Shown: piece by piece, positions 8,247 through 19,821 of the stretch
Layout of the letters: each line of letters opens with the position of its first letter
How positions within the stretch are numbered: position 1 is the stretch's first letter
Source: Candidatus Firestoneibacteriota bacterium
GTDB lineage: Bacteria; Oederibacteriota; Muellerivitia; Muellerivitales; Muellerivitaceae
Assembly (NCBI GenBank): GCA_013286205.1
Contig: JABDGD010000004.1
Coordinates: 4,293 to 68,292 of the forward strand
DNA: 64,000 nt
Reading direction: 5' to 3'
Position numbers and translations under genes: made by a program
The notes under the pieces: generated by a model
Databases searched by the model: none
Told to the model about the DNA's origin: nothing
Seen by the model: only the letters and a program-made list of their open reading frames with translations

Positions 8247-8927
8247 ATGAAATACTTCTTCCTTTTATTAACGCTTATGCTCATCAGCCCGTTCAGTTAC
8301 GGTCAAAACCCAGACCTAGCTAAAACCATTCCCGACCAAAGCGGCTATTATCCGATCGACTTGGGCGCGCAATGGACCTTCGAGCTCAAAGAAAAGAATC
8401 AAATTAAAACATCCATCGTCACCTGCGATAAAACCGGAAAAATTCACAACTTAGAATGCGTTCACTTAAAAAGCTCCGAAAACCGCCTTTCCTGTTGGGT
8501 TCGAAAGGAAGGCAACGTGGTGAATATCATGCAAACCAGCCGGTCTATTTTGGGGTTGGCCAATGTGGCGATCACCTTTGACCCGCCCATTCCCATCTTA
8601 AAGTTTCCCCTCACCAAGGGTGACACTTGGGAATATCAGGGCTGGGGCCGCACCTTTTTTCTCAGCAAGCCGCTTCACGTGAGTTATCAAAACAAGGGCC
8701 TCGAAACCCTTCAGTTGGATGGAAAGTCTTACAAAGCCTACCGCATTGAAGCGAGTTATCAGGTGGGTAACGATCCGGCGAAAACCCAAATTTCTTGGTA
8801 TGCCCAGGGCCTGGGTTTTGTTCACAGCCATTCCGACGCGCTGGAAATTACTTTGAAAAACTATGTCTCAAGCCAAGTAGTGGATACCCATAAAAAAATA
8901 GCTCCAATGGATGATTCAGAAAAATAA
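8247..8927 (+). CDS. Exported hypothetical beta-rich protein
   Basis: Signal peptide MKYFFLLLTLMLISPFSYG; YYPIDLGAQWTF, FPLTKGDTW, SWYAQGLGFV pattern. Confidence 0.7.
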   Translation: MKYFFLLLTLMLISPFSYGQNPDLAKTIPDQSGYYPIDLGAQWTFELKEKNQIKTSIVTCDKTGKIHNLECVHLKSSENRLSCWVRKEGNVVNIMQTSRSILGLANVAITFDPPIPILKFPLTKGDTWEYQGWGRTFFLSKPLHVSYQNKGLETLQLDGKSYKAYRIEASYQVGNDPAKTQISWYAQGLGFVHSHSDALEITLKNYVSSQVVDTHKKIAPMDDSEK

Positions 8928-8943
8928 TTCGGCTATTTTTAAT

Positions 8944-8976
8944 GAGGCGCAAGATTTGGCTAACGGCTAGCAGCCG
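8944..8976. repeat. Dispersed repeat copy D (partial) at the left edge of the AT-rich island
   Basis: gaggcgcaagatttgg followed by CGGCT/AGCCG hairpin. Confidence 0.6.
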
Positions 8977-8994
8977 AAGAGCGTCGAAACCGTT

Positions 8995-9690
8995 TTATTC
9001 GATGGAGTCGCTTTTTTGAAGATTGTGTCGCGCACAAAGAAGTTGGATATTTTCAGCCAGTAATGACGTACCACCTTTGGCAAAAGGAAGAACGTGATCG
9101 TAATGGAGATTATCCGAACTTTGGCATTTCGTACATTTGCCCCCGTCTCGCTTCCAAACCGCTAACTTCACTGGCGAAGGGATTAAACGCGTGTGATCTA
9201 AATCAGGCACTTCATGATTTTCTAAATCAAACTCTTCTTGGGCGATTTCAAGACGAAATTTAAAGACTTCTCTTCTTCCAACTTTTTCCAACCAGGCATC
9301 CATTAATTTAAAAACCCCGTTGTAAACCCAAATACCGCTTTTGATTTTTTCATAAACTTTGACTAATTCGGCGTGATTTCCACTCTTCTTAGCTTTATGG
9401 GCGGCCTCAAAAAACTTCCCGTTTTCGGTCAGCTTTCCGGTTTTAGTGAACATAGGCTGATCTTTCTTTTTAACATCCCCAACCCCTCTGGTTTTCGGTA
9501 AATCGTGGCCTTCATAAATAAGAACTTTGCCATCTTCTTGAACTTGGTCCACATAAGGCGCACCTGGCCGAACACTCATTAAAATAACGCTATAGGCAGA
9601 TTTTAAATGAAAGTTCATGCCCCGTTGAAGCATGGAATCTTCTTCAGCGCATAACTGGGTGTGTGAAATAACATCGCCAGATTTAATCAT
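8995..9690 (-). CDS. HNH endonuclease with N-terminal SRA/PUA-like domain (putative modification-dependent restriction enzyme)
   Basis: C-terminal VWKRDGGKCTKC..LHYDHVLPFAKGG..NIQLLCARHNLQKS. N-terminal PYVD....LIYEG, TENGKF, VKVYEK, WVYNGVFKL pattern resembles SRA domains (inference). Confidence 0.8.
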   Translation of the reverse strand: MIKSGDVISHTQLCAEEDSMLQRGMNFHLKSAYSVILMSVRPGAPYVDQVQEDGKVLIYEGHDLPKTRGVGDVKKKDQPMFTKTGKLTENGKFFEAAHKAKKSGNHAELVKVYEKIKSGIWVYNGVFKLMDAWLEKVGRREVFKFRLEIAQEEFDLENHEVPDLDHTRLIPSPVKLAVWKRDGGKCTKCQSSDNLHYDHVLPFAKGGTSLLAENIQLLCARHNLQKSDSIE

Positions 9691-9699
9691 GGGCTTTTC

Positions 9700-9930
9700 T
9701 CATTTAGAGATTCCCTTAAATAAATCTTTAATTGAAACACCAAGGGCTTTGGTTAATGCAGAAAGGGTATGTAAGGTGGGATTTTTACGGCCTTGTTCTA
9801 AATGGGCAATGTAAATGGCAGAAAGATTAGCCATTTCGGCCAATTTTTCTTGCGTCAATTTCTTAGCTTTTCTTAAACGCGTTAGGTTTTCAGCAAACAT
9901 CTCTAAATCTTGGTCTTTTTGCGAGGTCAT
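9700..9930 (-). CDS. XRE-family HTH regulator (RM controller-like)
   Basis: LRKAKKLTQEKLAEMANLSAIYIAHLEQGRKNPTLHTL; directly upstream of the HNH gene. Confidence 0.88.
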   Translation of the reverse strand: MTSQKDQDLEMFAENLTRLRKAKKLTQEKLAEMANLSAIYIAHLEQGRKNPTLHTLSALTKALGVSIKDLFKGISK

Positions 9931-9967
9931 AATAAAACCCACAATAAGTCCAAATTATTCGCATGTC

Positions 9968-9985
9968 CTATTACTATAGTAATAG
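9968..9985. promoter_or_regulatory. Perfect 18-bp palindrome, probable XRE operator
   Basis: CTATTACTATAGTAATAG about 40 nt upstream of the XRE start; C-box-like GACTTATTGT nearby on the minus strand. Confidence 0.55.
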
Positions 9986-10103
9986 TTATTGATGTGTGAT
10001 TTGATTGAGTTAAATGAAGCAGCTATCGACAATCAAAATACGGAAAGCAAAGCGTAAAATGTAGGCGTGACTCTTTGCTCAAAACCCAAATTTCATTCTT
10101 TAA

Positions 10104-11552
10104 TTAGGCAATTTTGCTTTCTATGTCCGCAATTATTGAATCCAAATCATTCGCGGGCACACAATTAGAAATCCAAACCTGGCACATTGTCACCCACAAA
10201 TATTTTTCTTCCTGCACTAATAGTCTCGCCGCCTCTGAAAGCCAATCATGATGATCTGTTATAAGAACGGTTCGTTGTAAAATATCTATAATTTCTTCTT
10301 TTGCCTTTTCCAATCTAACACCTAAGGAAGTTAACGCAGAGTCCACATTTTTAATGTCCATAAAAACTTGTTTTTCTGGTGCCAAACTTCCATAAAACTT
10401 AACGCAACCTACACTTACTGGTTGATCCGCATCCAAAATCCCACAACCTTTGGAACCCAATAAATGACTTTGCTGACTCAATCGTCCAACAAGCTTTACT
10501 TCATTAGCAGGGCCAACAGCCACAACTCTTACTCTTCGCATATCAAATTTTCTAAACCTTAATAGCTCTTGTATTAAAATTACTGCCTCTTCATCTTCAC
10601 AATAAAGAATTGCCTCTGGATGAGACAACGTGTCCATTCTCGACAAAGCAAACTCAGGTGTAACTCCATAAAAAACCTCAACACCAGATACACTTCGTTG
10701 TAAGAAAATACGAGCTTCTGGAGGCAACTCTTCCAATACACACTTACTATGCGAGGAAAGTATTATTTGTATTTGCCCTAAACGCGAAAGCCAGAGTAGA
10801 TAGTGTATTAATCTGCGTTGCGCATAAGGATGAAGAGAAGCTTCGATTTCATCAATAATAAGTAAAGACGTATCTGGTATATTTTGAAGATAGAATAGAA
10901 GGTCTAATGTAGCATCCTCACCAGTGCCTTGATGAAATTGTGATATTTCCGAACTACCGATCTTTACAACCCCAACCGCACGTTTACTATCAAAATTAGA
11001 CTTAGCGAATTTCGCTTCAGTGTATTCACGACCCATTATTCTTGAATAATACTTAATGGTTTGAGGATCTAATTGGTCGACTGAAACTTCGGTTGCAGAT
11101 CTTTTCGTTTGAATTGCATAGCCAGCAATCGCATCCAAAGGTAAGGTTCTGGAAATATCGTGCCATCTAACAGCACGACCATGCCGTACTTTTGGGTACC
11201 TCCAATTTTTTGTTGTTTTCTGTAATTTGAACTCTGTTTTATGGTCCCCTTCCTTTATTTTGTAAATAAGTTCAACATTTTGAACACGTTCCCAAGCTGT
11301 ATCTGGAAAAAAGCTACTCGGATAGTACGTTTCTGTTGGATCATCAGAATCTACGTATGCAGAAGCTGCCGCTTTTAGAATTGTTGATTTCCCGCATCCG
11401 TTTTCTCCAGAAATAACACAAACAGGGAATGGAAACCGAATTTCTTGGCCATGCCATCCACGCAAACCACTTATCTTTACGGACTCAAGGAACTTCGGCC
11501 AAGAATTATTATCTGACATTCTCGATTTTATTTTATTAACTTCGGGATCCAT
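10104..11552 (-). CDS. ABC-type (AAA_15/AAA_21-like) ATPase fused to TOPRIM-like domain (OLD-like ATP-dependent nuclease)
   Basis: Walker A GENGCGKST, signature QGTGE, Walker B LLIIDEIEASLHP, H-loop SSHS; C-terminal LYCED and GILDAD (TOPRIM E and DxD). Confidence 0.8.
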   Translation of the reverse strand: MDPEVNKIKSRMSDNNSWPKFLESVKISGLRGWHGQEIRFPFPVCVISGENGCGKSTILKAAASAYVDSDDPTETYYPSSFFPDTAWERVQNVELIYKIKEGDHKTEFKLQKTTKNWRYPKVRHGRAVRWHDISRTLPLDAIAGYAIQTKRSATEVSVDQLDPQTIKYYSRIMGREYTEAKFAKSNFDSKRAVGVVKIGSSEISQFHQGTGEDATLDLLFYLQNIPDTSLLIIDEIEASLHPYAQRRLIHYLLWLSRLGQIQIILSSHSKCVLEELPPEARIFLQRSVSGVEVFYGVTPEFALSRMDTLSHPEAILYCEDEEAVILIQELLRFRKFDMRRVRVVAVGPANEVKLVGRLSQQSHLLGSKGCGILDADQPVSVGCVKFYGSLAPEKQVFMDIKNVDSALTSLGVRLEKAKEEIIDILQRTVLITDHHDWLSEAARLLVQEEKYLWVTMCQVWISNCVPANDLDSIIADIESKIA

Positions 11553-11584
11553 AATATTCCTTCAAAATTAAAAAAATAAATATC

Positions 11585-12811
11585 CTAGTTTTTTGTAAAA
11601 CTAAGTATCACTTCTTCTCTCATTCTTTTTTGCATGGCTTTTCCACTAGAGCTGTTACTTGGTGGCGGAAGATAACGTCTATTATCTGGCAAAGGTCTTT
11701 TCTTTATAAAATTGAGTCTCAATCCTTTTTCAATTGAAACATTTTTGATGATTTTCGAATTAGAAACAAAAACATTCCCTAAATTACAATCACCTATAAC
11801 AAAAATGGCTTTTCCGTTATTACAAAGAACTCGTTCGATCTCAGATATAACCAAATCAAGATCGAACACATATCTTTTAAGCATTCCCAATTGGGCTCCA
11901 GAGAGAACGCCAACTTCGTTCAAACCACAAAGCTTTAACACCTCCAAATCCCTTCTCGATTCTTCAGCTAATTTTTTTGTCGCGCCAATGTTCTCAGATC
12001 GAATTTTTCTTAGTTCAGATATGTTGTGGCCCATCCAAACCAACGACAATTTATGACCTCTCAAATAATCAATTGCATTTAAATAGGGCGGGGAGGTGAT
12101 AACCATGTCAACGCTTTTATTCCCTAACGATAAACTTCTCGCATCACCTCTTTTAATCAAAACCTTTTCCAATTCATTACAACGAACAAAACTCTCATTA
12201 AAAGGCATTCGTTTAAGAACAATTTTTAATTGCTTTGAAAAAAAATCAAACGGGGAAACAGGTGCACGCCTATATGATTTGTGCGGCCTGCTATGCGAAA
12301 CATCCATCGCCAACGAAACGCCTACTTTTTTTGTAATAATCATTCGCGAGAATGCACACCAAAATAAATTTTTAAACTTTTGATTTTCAACACTGTCAAT
12401 AACAAGGGATAAAGCAGAAAGCTCTTTTCTTGTTTTTTGGTCAAACCAAAAATCTATAAACTCTCTCGTTTCTTCATCTGCATGTTTTGGATAAGCTTTT
12501 CCTGGATCAAGTTTTTCGATCATCTTTTTTGCAGTATTTAACAAAATTTCAGAAGCGGTCAAAATTGCTTCTGGATTAGTAAGGTCCGAACACCAAGTTT
12601 TGGTCATTAACAAGGCCAAGGGATCTGTATCAAATCCAATACCTAAATTCCCCGTAGATCTAGCAACCGCAAGCGTTGTGCCGGACCCCATCATCGGGTC
12701 TAAAACACGAATACGTTTTTTCAATGACGAAAGTTCTTCCAGCGCAATTGCGGAGGCCATTCTTGCCGGAAACGGGTGAATTGGTTGAATTGAAGATATA
12801 AGAGAATTCAT
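11585..12811 (-). CDS. Amino-methyltransferase, alpha arrangement, probable N4-cytosine DNA methyltransferase
   Basis: HPFPARM, motif I VLDPMMGSGTT near the N-terminus, GDAR, motif IV ITSPPY. Confidence 0.88.
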   Translation of the reverse strand: MNSLISSIQPIHPFPARMASAIALEELSSLKKRIRVLDPMMGSGTTLAVARSTGNLGIGFDTDPLALLMTKTWCSDLTNPEAILTASEILLNTAKKMIEKLDPGKAYPKHADEETREFIDFWFDQKTRKELSALSLVIDSVENQKFKNLFWCAFSRMIITKKVGVSLAMDVSHSRPHKSYRRAPVSPFDFFSKQLKIVLKRMPFNESFVRCNELEKVLIKRGDARSLSLGNKSVDMVITSPPYLNAIDYLRGHKLSLVWMGHNISELRKIRSENIGATKKLAEESRRDLEVLKLCGLNEVGVLSGAQLGMLKRYVFDLDLVISEIERVLCNNGKAIFVIGDCNLGNVFVSNSKIIKNVSIEKGLRLNFIKKRPLPDNRRYLPPPSNSSSGKAMQKRMREEVILSFTKN

Positions 12812-14109
12812 TTTTTACTCAAAAACTTCATTGAATTCTCAGCTAAAGAAACAGAAAGCTTATCAATGAATTGTCTAACTTCTTTTCCACCGTCGTTTTT
12901 ACTCATTTCATAAAGCGTATAAACCAATGTTAAATAAAAGACCTCTCCACCAGAATGAGAAAGCCATTCTTTATAAATTTTATTGTCGCGATTTATTTTT
13001 AAAGATGCGCCATCTTTGGTTTCTTCATTTTTAAACATAATCCGGGTGTCGTAATGTGTAAGTTCGATTTTTAAACTTTTGTTTGATTCTCGTTTTATTA
13101 GTTTTTTGAATTTCTCAATTACTCTCGTCTCTTTTCGCGCGGGCGTTTTGGAATTGCGCACAGTCTTAACAACATCTGCAATTTCAACATTCATCTTTTT
13201 GTCTATTGCTTGCCAAAGTGGAGAATCACGGTCTATATCGGTTTTGTTCATTGTAAGAGGAAGATCAAAGTCGATATAAAGTTCGCCATAAAGCTTTTCC
13301 ATTGACCACTTTAAAGTCGCATCTGAATATCCAAAATACTCTTTATCTGCTACACATCGACCATATTGATAAATTCTAAAACCTTTTCTAAAGCCATCTT
13401 TTAACGATTCAGAAGTGACCTGCCCATACCAACCTTTTATATTATATTTTTGACTTAGAAAAGTGATGGAAAGCTTGATATCAGCTTTTACGTCCTCTTC
13501 AAACTCAACTTGTTTAGGCACAACCTTTATGCCATTTATTATAAAATCAACTTCTTCCAACAAAATCAAAGGCGTGTAGATTCTTTCAATGGTGCTCATA
13601 ACCGTTGACTGTCTAAACTCTCTTTTCAACCCAGTTAACTCCAACTTGACAAAACCATTGTCAATATTTGATGGAGAATTTTTTATTTCAAATTTTTTCA
13701 AACCTTCGGATCGATCTTCCCAATTTTCTACATTCAAATAATAAAAATCTTTGCTGCCTTTTGGCTTGGTTTCAATAGCAAAGCTTTTTGCTAAATAGCC
13801 TATCGACGCCTTACCACCTTGACCATATCGTCCTATTTGAGAATCTTTTTTTGAAACACCCCACGCAAAAAAATCTTTAAGATTTTCTGGGGTCATTCCT
13901 TTTCCATGTTCATTTTGAATATTCAAACTATTTTCATCAAAATTTATGGTAACGACTAATTTTGTGCCGCCAACACGATCGTCAACGGCATTATCAATCA
14001 ATTCAAGCAATGCTTCGTATTGGCTAGAAAAATTCTTATAGAGAGCGCTAATAAGTTGTGGATTAAACGTTTCTTCGATGGTCTTTAAGTACTCTTCATT
14101 TTTACCCAT
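12808..14109 (-). CDS. GHKL (HATPase_c_3 / MORC-like) ATPase
   Basis: EALLELIDNAVD (N box), HGKGM, SKK..IGRYGQGGKAS (G2), and S5-like GFRIYQYGR..LYGELYIDF.LPLTMNKTDI; ATGA overlap with the methyltransferase gene. Confidence 0.85.
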   Translation of the reverse strand: MGKNEEYLKTIEETFNPQLISALYKNFSSQYEALLELIDNAVDDRVGGTKLVVTINFDENSLNIQNEHGKGMTPENLKDFFAWGVSKKDSQIGRYGQGGKASIGYLAKSFAIETKPKGSKDFYYLNVENWEDRSEGLKKFEIKNSPSNIDNGFVKLELTGLKREFRQSTVMSTIERIYTPLILLEEVDFIINGIKVVPKQVEFEEDVKADIKLSITFLSQKYNIKGWYGQVTSESLKDGFRKGFRIYQYGRCVADKEYFGYSDATLKWSMEKLYGELYIDFDLPLTMNKTDIDRDSPLWQAIDKKMNVEIADVVKTVRNSKTPARKETRVIEKFKKLIKRESNKSLKIELTHYDTRIMFKNEETKDGASLKINRDNKIYKEWLSHSGGEVFYLTLVYTLYEMSKNDGGKEVRQFIDKLSVSLAENSMKFLSKK

Positions 14110-14262
14110 ACAAAAACTCCCTATGTTCTTTTATCAGAACCGTTCCAAAAACCAATCGATTTGTCACTATTTAAAATTTAAGCGCTAAAGTCTTGGAAAT
14201 TATACGTTTCTTAATTAGCTGTTTACACAAAATCATTTAATAACAGGTGCTAACTTAATACT

Positions 14263-16242
14263 TTAAGTCTCCTGCGAAGATTCAGCCGCAACTGGATGAA
14301 TCACATCAACTTTATAAAGTGCGTCTATTTGAATAACATTCGATTTTGTTGCCCTGGTTAATACTAATCGCTCTTTTAAATACTCGCTTAAAGCCACATC
14401 CTTACACCAAACATAACAACCCTTACGTCCGCGAGACAGCAAAACACGGTATGTGCTTTTAATAATGTTATCAACACGATCTAAAATTGCTTGTTGGGCC
14501 ATAGGATCATATTTAGCTTCTTTAAATTCCCCCTTCCAACCTTTAAGACTGGCGTCCGTCTTAGCTCTTTTGGTTGGATCACCAAGAACATGCTCATTTT
14601 TGTAAGCCAAATCATCACCTATCAAAACGCCCATCCAATCAAATTCTAAACCTTGGCTGGTGTGGATACAGCCCACTTGACCTATTCCATCTTTTGAAGC
14701 GGCCCAACTTTCACCGTCATAATTCCATGGCAAAGCTAGTCCATCTGCCTGCACGTGCATTACTGTTGTTCCCCGTTCACGACCTTTTGTTGGCCAGGGC
14801 CAAGAATAGCCAGCGATTAAACGGGCTTTGTTGTTGTCATTTTTAGCTTTTAAAGCTTCGTACAAGTCTTCAGCTTTATCAAAAACCTTAAACTCATACT
14901 GACCATCACCCCAATTATCGTAATTACCTGTGGGGCGAATTTGCAGAACATCATCTAACCAATTGAGATACCCGGTTGAACCATTACAACGAAATTGAGC
15001 CGTTAGCTTCATCGGTTCGTGAAATTCGGCTTTAAATTTTTTAGCGGCATCTTTAATGGTTTCTATCGACCCAGAATCTTGCCAACTAACCCTTTGTGAT
15101 TCATCAATAAAGAAAACGCTAATGCGCGCGCTTCGCACCATGTCTTCGACCATGCTTTTACCTTTGTATTGATAGGCTTTGTCTTTTAAACGGTGCGCTT
15201 CATCCACAACTAATATTTCGTTTCGTTCATCTTTACGGTAATCAGATTGGTGAAAGCTCCAAGACGACTTAAAGAGCGCTTCACCATCTTCACGATAGCG
15301 TCTATCACCCTTCGACAAACTATCCACCAAGGCATCCCGAAAAGCTTTATTGGGTGCAACGAAAAAAGCCATGCGCTTTTTCTTTAGTGTCTCGGCTAGC
15401 AAGCGGACCGCAATAACGGATTTGCCTGTACCAGGTCCGCCTTCCACTACAAAAACATGTCGATGAGTCCGGTCAGCATCATTAAGAACTTGATGACGAA
15501 TAACTCGAAAAGCTTCATCTTGTTCATCAATCAATTGAAATTCTTCATTTCCTTCTAACATGCTTTCGACGCGACTTATAAGTTCGTCGGCTGGTCGCCA
15601 GCGTCCTTGGTCCAAAAGAAACAAAACATCATTCGTGGCTTTTTTGGGAATTAGTTCTTCAAAGTAATGCCGAAGGATTGAAACGTCGTCAGCGAGAAAT
15701 AATCGTGATTCAGCCAACAAATCTTTATAGCGTGAATCCTCTAAAGGCTCCGGGTTACGGCGGCGAAGATTAAAAAGGTAGGCTGACGGATGCATTTGAA
15801 CACCCTTTTCCAAAATATCTTGGTTGAAGCGCATAATCATGCCCTTGTACTGCCGGGCCTGCAAACTGGGATGTTGTTTTATTTTTCCACCGCCAACGGG
15901 GGCAAAAACCATATTTTCAATTTCAGTAGCGTCTGCTTTATCCCAGGCTTTCAGCTCGATGATCAAACCGTTGTCGTTTTTGCCATCACTGCCGGCCAAA
16001 AGAACATCGATGCGATTACGGCCAATAGATGAAACGTGATATTCAATCGCGACTTGAATATCGTCAGCTACTTCGGCCTTACGTAGTACGCCTGAAAACT
16101 GTGCGTATTCAGAAGCCCAAACTGAACGGTCAGCTGGTATAGAACCCGTCTTAGCTTTAAAGGCGTTTTCCAAGCTGGGTTGCAGAACGTTGTTATCAAC
16201 ATCTTCTATGAAGCCAGCTTTTGTGTTTTGGTAAATGATCAT
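14263..16242 (-). CDS. DUF2075 (Schlafen group 3-like) SF1 DNA/RNA helicase with N-terminal PD-(D/E)XK-like nuclease domain
   Basis: IEY..RIDVLL...IIELKAW; VEGGPGTGKS; VVDEAHRL; QFRCNGS; GCIHTSQGLEFD; YRVLLSRGRKGCY. Confidence 0.9.
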   Translation of the reverse strand: MIIYQNTKAGFIEDVDNNVLQPSLENAFKAKTGSIPADRSVWASEYAQFSGVLRKAEVADDIQVAIEYHVSSIGRNRIDVLLAGSDGKNDNGLIIELKAWDKADATEIENMVFAPVGGGKIKQHPSLQARQYKGMIMRFNQDILEKGVQMHPSAYLFNLRRRNPEPLEDSRYKDLLAESRLFLADDVSILRHYFEELIPKKATNDVLFLLDQGRWRPADELISRVESMLEGNEEFQLIDEQDEAFRVIRHQVLNDADRTHRHVFVVEGGPGTGKSVIAVRLLAETLKKKRMAFFVAPNKAFRDALVDSLSKGDRRYREDGEALFKSSWSFHQSDYRKDERNEILVVDEAHRLKDKAYQYKGKSMVEDMVRSARISVFFIDESQRVSWQDSGSIETIKDAAKKFKAEFHEPMKLTAQFRCNGSTGYLNWLDDVLQIRPTGNYDNWGDGQYEFKVFDKAEDLYEALKAKNDNNKARLIAGYSWPWPTKGRERGTTVMHVQADGLALPWNYDGESWAASKDGIGQVGCIHTSQGLEFDWMGVLIGDDLAYKNEHVLGDPTKRAKTDASLKGWKGEFKEAKYDPMAQQAILDRVDNIIKSTYRVLLSRGRKGCYVWCKDVALSEYLKERLVLTRATKSNVIQIDALYKVDVIHPVAAESSQET

Positions 16243-16263
16243 TTGGCCAAATGCCTTTTCGGT

Positions 16264-16641
16264 TTATAAATCGTTGTATTTCTTGTTGCTACCCTTTGAT
16301 TTATGAACTGGGTACTTTTTATTGTTGATCACCATTTTGCGACTCAAGGCGTGGCTTAAATCAATGTTGGCCATTTGAGCGAATCGCAAAAGCATAAAAA
16401 GGGTATCAGCTACCTCATGTTCTACTTCCAAACGTTTTTTAGGGTTCTTTAAATAGTTACGAGCTTCGTCTTCGGTTTTAAAACGGAAATGATCGAGAAG
16501 CTCAGCCGCTTCGGTGACGACACCAATGCTTAAATCTTTGGGCCCGTGGTACTGATCCCAATCCCGAACTTCACAAAATTGTTGGACAATATTCTTAAGT
16601 TGGTTGATGGTCGTTTTTTTATCCACTGTTTTCTTTCCCAA
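16264..16641 (-). CDS. MazG-like all-alpha nucleotide pyrophosphohydrolase
   Basis: RDWDQYHGPKDL, EAAELL, EVAD, KMVINNKKYP..KSKGSNKKY. Confidence 0.9.
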   Translation of the reverse strand: MGKKTVDKKTTINQLKNIVQQFCEVRDWDQYHGPKDLSIGVVTEAAELLDHFRFKTEDEARNYLKNPKKRLEVEHEVADTLFMLLRFAQMANIDLSHALSRKMVINNKKYPVHKSKGSNKKYNDL

Positions 16642-16663
16642 AATTTACTTGTCTTAAAAGTAA

Positions 16664-17464
16664 TTAAACTGAGACCTCTAAAAACTCGCCATTTAAGCCC
16701 GCAATGATTCTCTCTAGATATTTCATCATACTAGTTTCGATCAACATGATTTCTTCAAGTGACAAATTTATTTCGCTATCTAAAACCAGTTGCTCTTTAA
16801 AATTTCTAGGAAAGACTTCTTCTACTTGTTTTAAAGTTTTAGAATTAACAATCGCTCCATCATGAACAATTGAATGTCGACAAGCTTGACTTACAATAAT
16901 ATTGTTAACATTTACATCTTTGGTGATTGTTAGATGAAGATAATTCTTGAAAGCCTTGTAAACACTTTGCATGTCCTGAAAACTAATTTCTTTCTTAGAA
17001 GAAAAGACTTCTGCCAATATCTCTTTACGCGCGACTTCAATAATTTTTTCTAGTTCGCCAAAAGTTAACTTCATTTCTTCTTTTTTAAGATGGCCAAGCT
17101 TTTTCTTTTGAAAACCATAAGTAAGACTCGAAACAAACACATCGCTTAAAGCCGATGCGAAATGTGAAACCAACAACACTAACGCTTGATTAAAAATAGT
17201 TCCGTAATGTGTTCTTAATGAATCGTTCTTTTGAATATTTCTGAGGTTTTCTAAAGTCTTATCAACTGACAAATGCGGATTATCAAGCTTGTGATGTTGT
17301 TTTAGTTTTTCAGAGAGTTTTTCAAGATCGGTAATTGCCGTGCTTAAAACTATTCGATCGAAATTAATGAGATCGTTCACAATTTGGACGTTTTTTTCAA
17401 ACGTCGTAATAATTTTGGAATTGATCTCTTTTAGAGTTGGTGTTGCTAAAACTGACGCTGGCAA
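16664..17464 (-). CDS. Hypothetical all-helical protein with HEPN-type RxxxxH motif
   Basis: QALVLLVSHF..., ISFQ, CRHSIVHDGAIV; TTG start with GGAG RBS. Confidence 0.6.
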   Translation of the reverse strand: MPASVLATPTLKEINSKIITTFEKNVQIVNDLINFDRIVLSTAITDLEKLSEKLKQHHKLDNPHLSVDKTLENLRNIQKNDSLRTHYGTIFNQALVLLVSHFASALSDVFVSSLTYGFQKKKLGHLKKEEMKLTFGELEKIIEVARKEILAEVFSSKKEISFQDMQSVYKAFKNYLHLTITKDVNVNNIIVSQACRHSIVHDGAIVNSKTLKQVEEVFPRNFKEQLVLDSEINLSLEEIMLIETSMMKYLERIIAGLNGEFLEVSV

Positions 17465-17696: not shown

Positions 17697-19097
17697 ATGA
17701 CGCCTGAAAACACCGTATTAGCCCCTACTGCCAACTCTAATAATGGCGAGTTGGCCTCCTCTAATTCGGGGATTTCGTCTTCGACTCAACAACCAATACG
17801 TAAAGCCACCCTGACCAAGGTAGCCATCCACCAAATATGGCCTAACCCCCAGAACCCCCGGTCGGTCTATAGCCTCGAAGACATTCAAAATCTGGCGGCC
17901 AACCTGAAGGCCTCGGGCCAGCGCAGCCCTATAAAGCTGGTACCCCTGACCGAGTTAGAAAAGGCCCAGTTACAGAACGGCTATGAGTATAAGCTTCTGG
18001 GCGGGCACATGCGCCGGGAAGCGGCGCTGACCCTGGGTTGGGATAGCCTGGATGCACTGATCTTCGACTTAACCCCCGATGAGGCCGAGTTGGAGATGAT
18101 CTTAGACAACCGGGTGATCGAACTACCCTGGCTGGATCAGTACAAGGTCATTGAGGCCTATAAGGCCAAGAACCCGACCCTGAGCCAAGAAGCCCTGGGT
18201 GCCCGGTTAGGGGTAGACCAGGTGACCATTAGCCGGGCTTTGAAGACCTTAAAGTACCTAAATCAGGGTTCCCGGGAGCTGGTTTATTCAGTCTGCATAA
18301 AACCGGGTGCCGCGCTTCAGGGTGGCAAGATGGTAGCCTTGGCTTTAACCGCCTTAGAAGACCCCGAAAAGGTCGAGCAAGCCCTGCGGGTAGCCCTCGA
18401 CCGGAAGATGACGGAAGCCCAAGCCAAGAAGCTGGTCGAATGGGTGCAGGGGGGCAATGAGCCGGAGGCATACAAACCCGCAAAAGAAGTTAGGAGTTCG
18501 AAGTTAGAGAGTTCGGAGTTAAAGGAACAAACACATCCTCACCCCAGCGCAAATATACCTCTAGGACAACCAAGTCATATCGCTCAACCAAAAGTCTTGG
18601 AGCAGGTGAAAGCCTTAACTTCTAACTCCTCACTTCGAACTTCTAACTCAAAAGCCGTTCCTGCCCCCGCGGCCAACCGCCAAATGTCCGAAACGGAAAC
18701 CGTCTTATGGAGTGAGGCGGTCGGCATTTCTATCGTGAGCCGCATTAAGGCCAAAATTAAAAAGGGCGAACGGCCTAACTTGTTTGAGGTTTTAATTTTG
18801 GCGGTTCATACCCTGGGGACAGGCCTGGCCTGGGTAGCCAAGCAGGTTTGGAAAATGGCTAAGCCGGTCGCCAAGGTTCTTTGGAAACTTTTAAAAGACG
18901 GCGTGAAGCTAACGCTAAAGGCTTTAGGCCGGACGGTCTATAACCTGGTTCGCGTAGTCTTAGTTTTGACAGTGCTGGGGCTATTGGGCTGGTTCGCCTG
19001 GGAATTTTATAAGAATGGCCATCATCCCCGGCAAGCTTTACTCACTATCGGCAAGACCCTAATAGATTGGGCGGTTCTTCTCTGGCGCCAAGGATGA
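17697..19097 (+). CDS. ParB/Spo0J-like protein with HTH and C-terminal membrane anchor
   Basis: PNPQNPR, GQRSPI, GGHMRREA (GxxR box), LSQEALGARLGVDQVTISRAL HTH, hydrophobic VVLVLTVLGLLGWFAWEFY. Confidence 0.8.
   Translation: MTPENTVLAPTANSNNGELASSNSGISSSTQQPIRKATLTKVAIHQIWPNPQNPRSVYSLEDIQNLAANLKASGQRSPIKLVPLTELEKAQLQNGYEYKLLGGHMRREAALTLGWDSLDALIFDLTPDEAELEMILDNRVIELPWLDQYKVIEAYKAKNPTLSQEALGARLGVDQVTISRALKTLKYLNQGSRELVYSVCIKPGAALQGGKMVALALTALEDPEKVEQALRVALDRKMTEAQAKKLVEWVQGGNEPEAYKPAKEVRSSKLESSELKEQTHPHPSANIPLGQPSHIAQPKVLEQVKALTSNSSLRTSNSKAVPAPAANRQMSETETVLWSEAVGISIVSRIKAKIKKGERPNLFEVLILAVHTLGTGLAWVAKQVWKMAKPVAKVLWKLLKDGVKLTLKALGRTVYNLVRVVLVLTVLGLLGWFAWEFYKNGHHPRQALLTIGKTLIDWAVLLWRQG
18486..18650. 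repeat. Heptamer-periodic inverted repeat element inside the ParB-like CDS
   Basis: gaagtta ggagttc gaagtta g agagttc ggagtta (18486-18521) and taacttc taactcc tcacttc gaacttc taactca (18616-18650). Confidence 0.75.
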
Positions 19098-19162: not shown

Positions 19163-19525
19163 TTAAGCTTCAGTCAGATCAACATCTTCCAAAAGATCTC
19201 TAAAACTAACACCTAATGCTTTCGCTATTTTTTGAATAACATCCAACGTGGCGTTATAGCCATAATCCAAATCCTCAATGTAATTAAGCGTTCTCAAACT
19301 AACACCGGATTTATGTGCCAAATCCTTTTGAGTCATATGTTTCTTGGTGCGGATATGGACTAAATTCCAAGCTAAACAAGCTTTAGGATCTGGATTTTTA
19401 AGAGACTTGTAAATTTCAGGATTGGTTTTTTTAAGTTTTTTTAAATTATCTTCATGGCTCGTAAAACCACTGAATGTTTTCTTTTTTTCTACTGTTTTCA
19501 TTTCGCTCACCTTATTTATATTCAC
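19163..19525 (-). CDS. XRE-HTH antitoxin-like protein (HigA-like); alternative start 19501
   Basis: RTKKHMTQKDLAHKSGVSLRTLNYIE; overlaps the upstream RelE-like gene. Confidence 0.8.
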   Translation of the reverse strand: MNINKVSEMKTVEKKKTFSGFTSHEDNLKKLKKTNPEIYKSLKNPDPKACLAWNLVHIRTKKHMTQKDLAHKSGVSLRTLNYIEDLDYGYNATLDVIQKIAKALGVSFRDLLEDVDLTEA

Positions 19526-19821
19526 TCGTCTTGTTCTTCAATCTCCTGTACCAATTTTTTTAGCGCCGCAAGTTCCTTAGGGCTCGGCTCCCCTTTTCTC
19601 ACAATGTGAGCTGTCAAAACAAAGAGCGTGTTCAGCTTATGCGAAAAATAAAAATTAACGCAAATCGTCCTATTTTCAGTTTTTACAAGGATCTCAAAAG
19701 GGCCTTGTTTCGGTTTTTCTAATTTTAACTTTCCTATTTGTACCTTATAAGCCGTGTACTCCTTGCCGTTGATGATCCTATTTGAAAACTGCCCAAAAAA
19801 GTTTGACTCTTGGATGTTCAT
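19522..19821 (-). CDS. Putative HigB/RelE (Gp49-like) toxin; may start at 19864 with a T-run frameshift
   Basis: C-terminal FVLTAHIVRKGEPSPKELAALKK resembles the Gp49-type LLHGF.KK...P..EI motif; toxin-first order with XRE gene. Confidence 0.5.
   Translation of the reverse strand: MNIQESNFFGQFSNRIINGKEYTAYKVQIGKLKLEKPKQGPFEILVKTENRTICVNFYFSHKLNTLFVLTAHIVRKGEPSPKELAALKKLVQEIEEQDE

Follow-up and report, generated by a model that had tools for sequence, protein, structure and literature searches.

A HEC-04-type ATPase-TOPRIM gene behind a methyltransferase and a MORC-like GHKL ATPase: two probable defence modules that may share one transcription unit

We analyzed a three-gene unit on the minus strand of a 64,000-nucleotide stretch of DNA from a Candidatus Firestoneibacteriota bacterium (contig JABDGD010000004.1; the whole stretch is referred to below as the window). 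The unit encodes a GHKL ATPase, a DNA methyltransferase with an SPPY motif and a protein in which an ABC-type ATPase is joined to a TOPRIM domain. The interpretation that we favor, with somewhat better than even confidence, is that the three genes represent two defence modules sharing one transcription unit on a low-GC island, the first a stand-alone nuclease of the HEC-04 family and the second a methyltransferase coupled to a MORC-like ATPase. An earlier note, made from the sequence of the window, had instead proposed a restriction-modification (R-M)-like triad, with the TOPRIM protein acting either as a restriction component licensed by a GHKL clamp or as a guard triggered when phage inhibits the methyltransferase/GHKL complex. 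The elements of the unit, as taken from the list of open reading frames (ORFs), and the gap that precedes it are:

12808-14109, minus strand: GHKL ATPase gene (433 aa)
11585-12811, minus strand: SPPY methyltransferase gene (408 aa)
10104-11552, minus strand: ATPase-TOPRIM (HEC-04-type) gene (482 aa)
14110-14262, minus strand: AT-rich gap of 153 bp 5' of the GHKL gene, containing a perfect TATAAT

At the first junction, AAAAAATGAATT, the TGA stop codon of the GHKL gene is shared with the ATG of the methyltransferase gene in a 4-nt ATGA (12808-12811), and a 32-bp spacer (11553-11584) separates the methyltransferase gene from the ATPase-TOPRIM gene, which has a GAAGGA ribosome-binding site 7 nt 5' of its ATG. 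Both the overlap and the spacer had been described in the earlier note and were confirmed from the ORF list and the sequence, and its three domain calls were borne out by Pfam, PADLOC and NCBIfam, which gave a GHKL ATPase, an N6/N4-type methyltransferase and an ABC-type ATPase. The three genes probably form one transcription unit. The TATAAT in the 153-bp gap is a possible promoter of its own for this unit; a consensus scan of the gap called neither a promoter nor a terminator.

The ATPase-TOPRIM protein, in which an ABC ATPase and a TOPRIM nuclease are joined, is a full-length member of HEC-04. Residues 4-478 matched positions 10-486 of the 494-position PADLOC profile PDLC04149 (HEC-04; E 1.3e-55, 186.9 bits), while the next-best PADLOC family reached 4.5e-18; Pfam matches were to AAA_15, AAA_21 and SMC_N. 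The protein carries GENGCGKST at residues 49-57 together with E319, D374 and D376, and K55, E235, H268, E319, D374 and D376 are invariant in an alignment of eight HEC-04 relatives. By Payne, Hughes, Fineran and Jackson (bioRxiv 10.1101/2024.01.29.577857), HEC-04 (Hma-embedded candidate 04) is described as an ABC ATPase fused with an OLD-like TOPRIM, which was cloned as a single gene and found embedded in the Hma system; the tested member defends as a single gene, and its defence is abolished by mutation of K62 or of E319/D375/D377. These residues correspond to K55 and to E319, D374 and D376, respectively, in the window protein. Membership in HEC-04, combined with the single-gene defence of the tested member, suggests that no GHKL or methyltransferase partner is needed, so the proposal that the TOPRIM protein is a dependent component was not upheld, while the more general view of ATPase-TOPRIM proteins as defence effectors was supported. 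By analogy with its tested relative, the window protein would act alone, its ABC ATPase sensing infection and its fused TOPRIM domain cutting DNA.

The resemblance to the tested HEC-04 (bioRxiv 10.1101/2024.01.29.577857) extends to the architecture, with an ABC ATPase followed in one chain by an OLD-like TOPRIM domain at the C-terminus, the full-length match to the hidden Markov model, the almost equal positions of the Walker A Lys and of the Glu/DxD metal site, and the embedding beside a methylation-based system. It differs in that the host system of the window gene is not Hma, that the relatives found are at most about 46% identical and that the window copy is known from sequence. Class 1 OLD, Gabija GajA and PARIS AriA/AriB likewise couple an ABC ATPase to TOPRIM; they have other ATPase inserts, and the window lacks a GajB or AriB partner gene. 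Partial PADLOC matches of the window protein to GajA, AriA and PtuA cover only the C-terminal lobe of its ATPase region.

Chromosomal relatives of HEC-04 were sought in another phylum, where 7 of 401 genomes had a match at E <= 1e-25. The seven loci examined comprised six of these matches and one locus from another genome, the seventh match being left out because it sat on a contig of 1872 nt. Five of the seven loci lie amid housekeeping or mobile genes without a defence or R-M neighbor. At another (L219:3512-13083), the HEC-04 gene is flanked by hsdS and hsdR from a type I system and overlaps them by 1 and 4 nt, and at the last it lies 271 bp 5' of a methyltransferase-Bpu10I ORF. Since HEC-04 can be embedded this tightly in a complete type I operon, tight packing does not mark a subunit. 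The L219 operon also carries a Macro-domain protein between hsdM and hsdS. Twenty-seven plasmid records had a HEC-04 match, and among the four that were inspected, one gene lies 215 bp after a type I hsdR, one is near Vsr and Dcm and two have no R-M neighbor. Genes of the HEC-04 family are habitually found inside or beside methylation-based systems. By blastp, none of the seven chromosomal loci, all with usable flanks, gave a match to the window GHKL protein, and no GHKL or histidine-kinase-type product is annotated beside the gene at the four inspected plasmid loci.

The GHKL protein is predicted to be MORC-like, with a GHKL domain and an S5-like transducer forming a module at residues ~14-330. 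It matched Pfam HATPase_c_3 (E 5.9e-10) and, in a profile search of the PDB, MORC3 (E 1.6e-06). MORC3 was also the best Foldseek match (E 4e-15) of its AlphaFold model (pLDDT 82), and VIA-align superposed residues 14-323 of the model on MORC3 (5ix2_A) with Z 21.6 and an rmsd of 3.5 over 284 residues; the ~100-aa C-terminal domain gave no convincing fold match. The GHKL motifs are E36-N40-D43, NEHGKGM at 66-72 and GRYGQGGKAS at 93-102, and E36, N40, D43, G69, G71 and GQGGK are invariant in a 25-sequence alignment of the family. The Asp of the G1 box, which contacts adenine in other GHKL ATPases, is absent from its canonical place two residues before G69 in nearly all of the 25 members; most have an Asn three residues before the G1 glycines (N66 in the window protein), and a few have an Asp there. 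The atypical G1 box pointed out in the earlier note is thus real and family-wide. The family is small, with 1420 cluster representatives at E <= 1e-3, 426 at E <= 1e-10 and 90 at E <= 1e-30 out of 1.84 billion, and its best 150 profile matches were 103-681 aa long. No fused forms were found among proteins of 759-2165 aa, which is weak evidence, and no relatives were found in plasmids or in viral contigs.

To place the GHKL gene among its relatives, neighborhoods were compared at 80 loci from species-representative genomes and at least 79 from metagenomes, and all ORFs of 90 aa or more from the 159 listed loci, 1,248 in number, were clustered. Eleven of these loci hold a ~430-aa subfamily that is 40-46% identical to the window protein, and eight of the eleven share one gene order, which runs from a methyltransferase of ~433 aa through a protein of 360 aa and a HerA/DUF87 ATPase to the GHKL gene. 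The remaining ~430-aa loci are one cut-off HerA-GHKL pair and two contigs too short to show more. With a methyltransferase in each of the eight complete cassettes, the link between MORC-type GHKL ATPases and R-M operons drawn in the earlier note holds for the family of the window protein. The 360-aa protein (cluster c15) is predicted to be NurA-like: it had a protein atlas score of 0.95 to clusters with 21-33% PF09376 (NurA) members, and its C-terminal motif presumably matches the NurA motif. It had no credible Pfam match even at E <= 10 and none in the PDB profile search, and its predicted model (pLDDT 55) was left out of the fold comparison. The usual nuclease arm of the ~430-aa GHKL type is therefore a NurA-like protein with HerA. 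The four-gene cassette was not found in the literature searched. A branch of ~500-aa GHKL proteins, represented by many loci (L004-L081, L090-L145) that come mostly from metagenome-assembled genomes of Chloroflexota and Dormibacterota, has no conserved neighbor and may act alone or with unlinked genes.

A HEC-04 relative was present at none of the 159 listed loci, and the window HEC-04 protein was a singleton in the ORF clustering. Given also the lack of a GHKL gene at the seven chromosomal and four plasmid HEC-04 loci, the conserved three-gene synteny anticipated in the earlier note was not observed. That note had named the finding of homologues in unrelated contexts, together with the lack of a methylation-dependent or anti-phage phenotype, as evidence against its triad, and the first of these, the part on synteny, was borne out. 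Its observations, its domain calls and its link between MORC-type ATPases and R-M operons stand, and its conserved triad does not.

The methyltransferase is, as judged from its sequence, of the amino type. It matched Pfam N6_N4_Mtase (3.6e-08) and PADLOC MTase_II (E 3.3e-26) and carries DPMMGSGTT (motif I) at residues 38-46 and TSPPY at 239-243 (SPPY at 240-243), the latter invariant in 28 relatives. Motif I precedes TSPPY, so that the motif order is permuted with respect to beta-class enzymes, as a PDB alignment to 2zie shows. An SPPY/F motif IV is typical of N4-cytosine methyltransferases, but not exclusive to them; there was a weak PDB match to an N4-cytosine methyltransferase (E 0.008), and one relative is automatically named 'cytosine-N(4)-specific' in UniRef. 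The modified base would be either N4-cytosine or N6-adenine. The family comprised 6024 matched members, and the window enzyme is 27-28% identical to the methyltransferases of the cassettes and 51-55% identical to many relatives outside them.

These relatives keep varied company. In a genome of the same phylum (G030), a 51%-identical methyltransferase overlaps by 4 nt a 579-aa Mrr_cat protein, and the two form an ordinary R-M pair. On viral contigs and one plasmid, relatives of 37-44% identity lie beside two types of partner. At the first (L179), the partners are HerA and a protein homologous to the 360-aa one of the cassettes (hhalign 99.2%). At the second, seen on a viral contig (L182:339-6535) and an Allorhizobium plasmid (L198:1058-7197), three genes lie divergently to that of the window-like methyltransferase. 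They encode a second methyltransferase, a protein of 756-774 aa that has HATPase_c_3 at its N-terminus and HATPase_c at its C-terminus, and a ~410-aa protein of no family. The methyltransferase family thus swaps partners readily and meets GHKL-type ATPases repeatedly.

In the two-module interpretation, the methyltransferase would mark host DNA at a short motif and would be translationally coupled to a bare MORC-like GHKL protein, which, if it resembles MORC, MutL and GyrB in this respect, could work as an ATP-driven dimerizing DNA clamp. The most likely role of the GHKL-methyltransferase pair is DNA modification, to which the clamp would be accessory. Since the NurA-like/HerA arm is missing, the gene order is different and the methyltransferase belongs to another lineage, the pair would be a recombined, nuclease-less variant of the four-gene cassette. 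The locus combines a HEC-04 member with a paraMORC-like R-M accessory such as Iyer, Abhiman and Aravind (2008, PMC2292703) predicted. The prokaryotic MORC and paraMORC proteins treated there likewise combine GHKL with an S5-like module, are sporadic and horizontally spread, and have genes linked to DNA methyltransferases and nucleases; unlike them, the window family lacks the canonical G1 Asp and any nuclease or TIR extension, and its relatives are usually partnered by HerA and a NurA-like protein, not by an SFII helicase. GHKL relatives thus form the fourth gene of methyltransferase-NurA-HerA cassettes, while the window has neither NurA nor HerA.

The three genes are part of a low-GC island next to prfC that was acquired horizontally. 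The GC content of the three-gene region is 0.35-0.39, compared with 0.48 for the source window. In two genomes of the same genus, prfC and further genes of the flanks are present at 77-85% identity, but nothing matches positions 8864-16270 of the window at the DNA level; no DNA match was found in E. coli genomes. Among 99 genomes of the phylum, HEC-04 occurs in one, as does the GHKL gene. In a Smithella metagenome-assembled genome (L002:1338-9290), a methyltransferase-NurA-like-HerA-GHKL cassette adjoins prfC and is divergent from it, like the island of the window. This may mark prfC as a recurrent insertion hotspot or may be a coincidence.

Several observations nevertheless weigh against the independence of the two modules. 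The only nuclease in the three-gene unit is HEC-04, and an intact GHKL protein, with its other catalytic motifs conserved and its gene coupled by ATGA to that of the methyltransferase, seems to require a restriction arm. The GC content at third codon positions is 0.28-0.32 in all three genes, and no terminator or promoter was predicted at the methyltransferase/HEC-04 junction. The synteny sample of the GHKL family covers 80 loci from species-representative genomes and at least 79 from metagenomes, and the closest relative (P0005, 63% identity) lies on a contig of 2649 nt that leaves its neighbors out of view. Finally, the eight-gene MADS system of Pseudomonas aeruginosa (bioRxiv 10.1101/2023.03.30.534895; PMC13662399) shows that methylation-based defence can depend on an OLD-like ATPase plus Toprim module as an essential arm: deletion of mad5 was possible only along with that of mad2 or mad3.

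The leading alternative is an integrated triad, in which the methyltransferase marks self, the GHKL clamp recognizes or holds unmodified DNA and HEC-04 is a captured restriction arm that replaces NurA-like/HerA. In addition to the lack of another nuclease, it could account for the compact layout, with its 4-nt overlap, its 32-bp gap with a dedicated ribosome-binding site and no predicted terminator between the genes. It also fits the position of the GHKL gene, which occupies the slot held by the Mrr_cat protein 5' of the G030 methyltransferase, the free exchange of partners by the methyltransferase family (L179; L182 and L198) and the pairing, in MADS, of a methyltransferase with an essential OLD-like MAD3-MAD4 module. 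Nevertheless, no second triad occurred in the 159 listed GHKL loci or the 11 inspected HEC-04 loci, the tested HEC-04 member defends alone, and HEC-04 sits equally tightly inside the complete type I system of L219. Moreover, the order GHKL, methyltransferase, HEC-04 is not that of an in-place swap, as NurA and HerA sit between the methyltransferase and the GHKL gene in the cassettes. We therefore regard an integrated triad as possible but unlikely. Its fullest form, a minimal methylation-based immune system in which a clamp without the adenine-binding Asp and a methyltransferase license a captured HEC-04 in place of NurA-HerA, is if anything a little more doubtful.

A guard or backup function strikes us as improbable. 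Here a HEC-04 that is chemically self-sufficient but functionally linked to its neighbors would fire once the methylation module has been disabled by an anti-restriction protein of a phage, either a DNA mimic or an inhibitor of the methyltransferase. HEC-04 relatives do turn up repeatedly within or next to R-M systems of various types, and the HEC-04 preprint (bioRxiv 10.1101/2024.01.29.577857) proposes such a role for ABC-ATPase systems that are embedded, with reference to Ocr, which triggers PARIS and Gabija. However, five of the seven chromosomal HEC-04 loci have no R-M neighbor, and the module to be guarded in the window has no restriction arm worth inhibiting. We also know of no HEC-04 trigger.

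The genes on either side of the triad belong to other modules:

16664-17464, minus strand: 266-aa protein of no family, part of a module at 14263-17464
16264-16641, minus strand: MazG-like pyrophosphohydrolase (Pfam MazG-like 4e-10)
14263-16242, minus strand: DUF2075/Schlafen-type helicase, 659 aa (Pfam SLFN-g3_helicase, E 3.8e-88)
9700-9942, minus strand: XRE-type helix-turn-helix (HTH) protein, 80 aa (Pfam HTH_3, E 3.4e-15)
8995-9690, minus strand: SRA-HNH endonuclease (SAD_SRA 3.9e-06, under the Pfam cut-off; HNH 1.5e-05)

The DUF2075 helicase goes with the MazG-like gene in a module separate from the triad. The two genes are 21 bp apart in the window, a MazG-like gene lies directly 5' of DUF2075 relatives (36-37% identity) at three of the five plasmid loci inspected, and such pairs recur on plasmids of Priestia, Halalkalicoccus and Marivirga. 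The pair is possibly a nucleotide-depleting or nuclease-helicase defence system. That this helicase, which has an N-terminal PD-(D/E)xK-like motif (D79, E96 and K98, invariant in five sequences), is instead the restriction arm of a MORC, helicase-nuclease and methylase system, a kind predicted by Iyer et al. (2008, PMC2292703), is very improbable: although it lies on one strand with the triad, 153 bp upstream, and Iyer et al. report helicase-nuclease partners in about 70% of prokaryotic MORC neighborhoods, no DUF2075 relative occurs at the 159 listed GHKL loci (the window helicase was a singleton in the ORF clustering), its own relatives pair with a MazG-like gene as in the window, a TATAAT lies in the intervening gap, and its RecD, AAA_19/AAA_30 and Nhi/AbiO matches are SF1-like rather than SFII.

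On the other side of the triad, the XRE-type HTH gene ends a few bases 5' of the SRA-HNH gene, and the two look like a separate module, a putative regulated methyl-cytosine-directed type IV-like nuclease. The HTH protein resembles a C-protein-style regulator, placed before the SRA-HNH nuclease and near an amino-methyltransferase. At the prfC edge of the island (19163-19821, minus strand), a 99-aa ORF of no family with low GC content has a 4-nt overlap with a 120-aa HTH_3 protein, and the two look like a toxin-antitoxin pair. Within the low-GC island, a 466-aa ParB_N plus HTH protein (17697-19097, plus strand) has a host-like GC content of 0.53; it has a partial match beside a Fic gene in a same-genus genome, so the region has been rearranged between relatives. 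Farther away (24369-50698), an AT-skew of -0.41 to +0.35 coincides with five genes of 655-743 aa, four of which match PMT_2; these are probably paralogous membrane glycosyltransferases (PMT_2 being family 39), and the skew is probably ordinary.

Comparison with known systems led us to reject four other identities for the locus. A type II R-M system was rejected since, despite the methyltransferase, no restriction endonuclease family was matched within the three-gene unit by Pfam, PADLOC or NCBIfam. MADS resembles the unit in combining a methyltransferase with an OLD-like ATPase/Toprim module and resembles the ancestral GHKL cassette in its HerA-like ATPase-nuclease module, but it has eight genes, with MAD3 and MAD4 as separate proteins, and its detection model requires MAD6, MAD7 and MAD8 (bioRxiv 10.1101/2023.03.30.534895; PMC13662399). 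MAD6-8 are not present in the window, where the PADLOC matches to mad2 (2e-05), mad3 (8.2e-15) and mad8 (9e-05) are weak and generic, the mad3 match being to a generic ATPase and the mad8 match falling on the P-loop of the DUF2075 helicase, not on a triad gene. Hma consists of the Snf2 helicase HmaA, the 5-methylcytosine methyltransferase HmaB and the DUF499 ATPase HmaC; no Hma model was found among the PADLOC matches of the helicase (9), the GHKL protein (0) or the methyltransferase (best 25 of 38), and the window methyltransferase is of the N6_N4 rather than the 5-methylcytosine type. Finally, the GHKL protein was not identified as Tiamat, since it has no PADLOC match, is far shorter and scored below threshold for the sacsin-type NCBIfam model (26.8 bits versus a cut-off of 50).

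If the two-module interpretation holds, the locus would be another case of embedding, in which a stand-alone nuclease resides in the operon of a methylation module; it would support embedding as a general rule and would warn against inferring a complex from tight packing. If the integrated triad were true instead, it would parallel the eight-gene MADS with three genes and would show a 'stand-alone' defence gene that its host system has domesticated to serve as a restriction subunit. Of more interest are two by-products, a rare MORC-like ATPase family that lacks the canonical G1 Asp and the four-gene cassette of methyltransferase, NurA-like protein, HerA and GHKL ATPase. Together, this family and its cassette could offer a tractable bacterial model for how a MORC-type clamp cooperates with DNA methylation.

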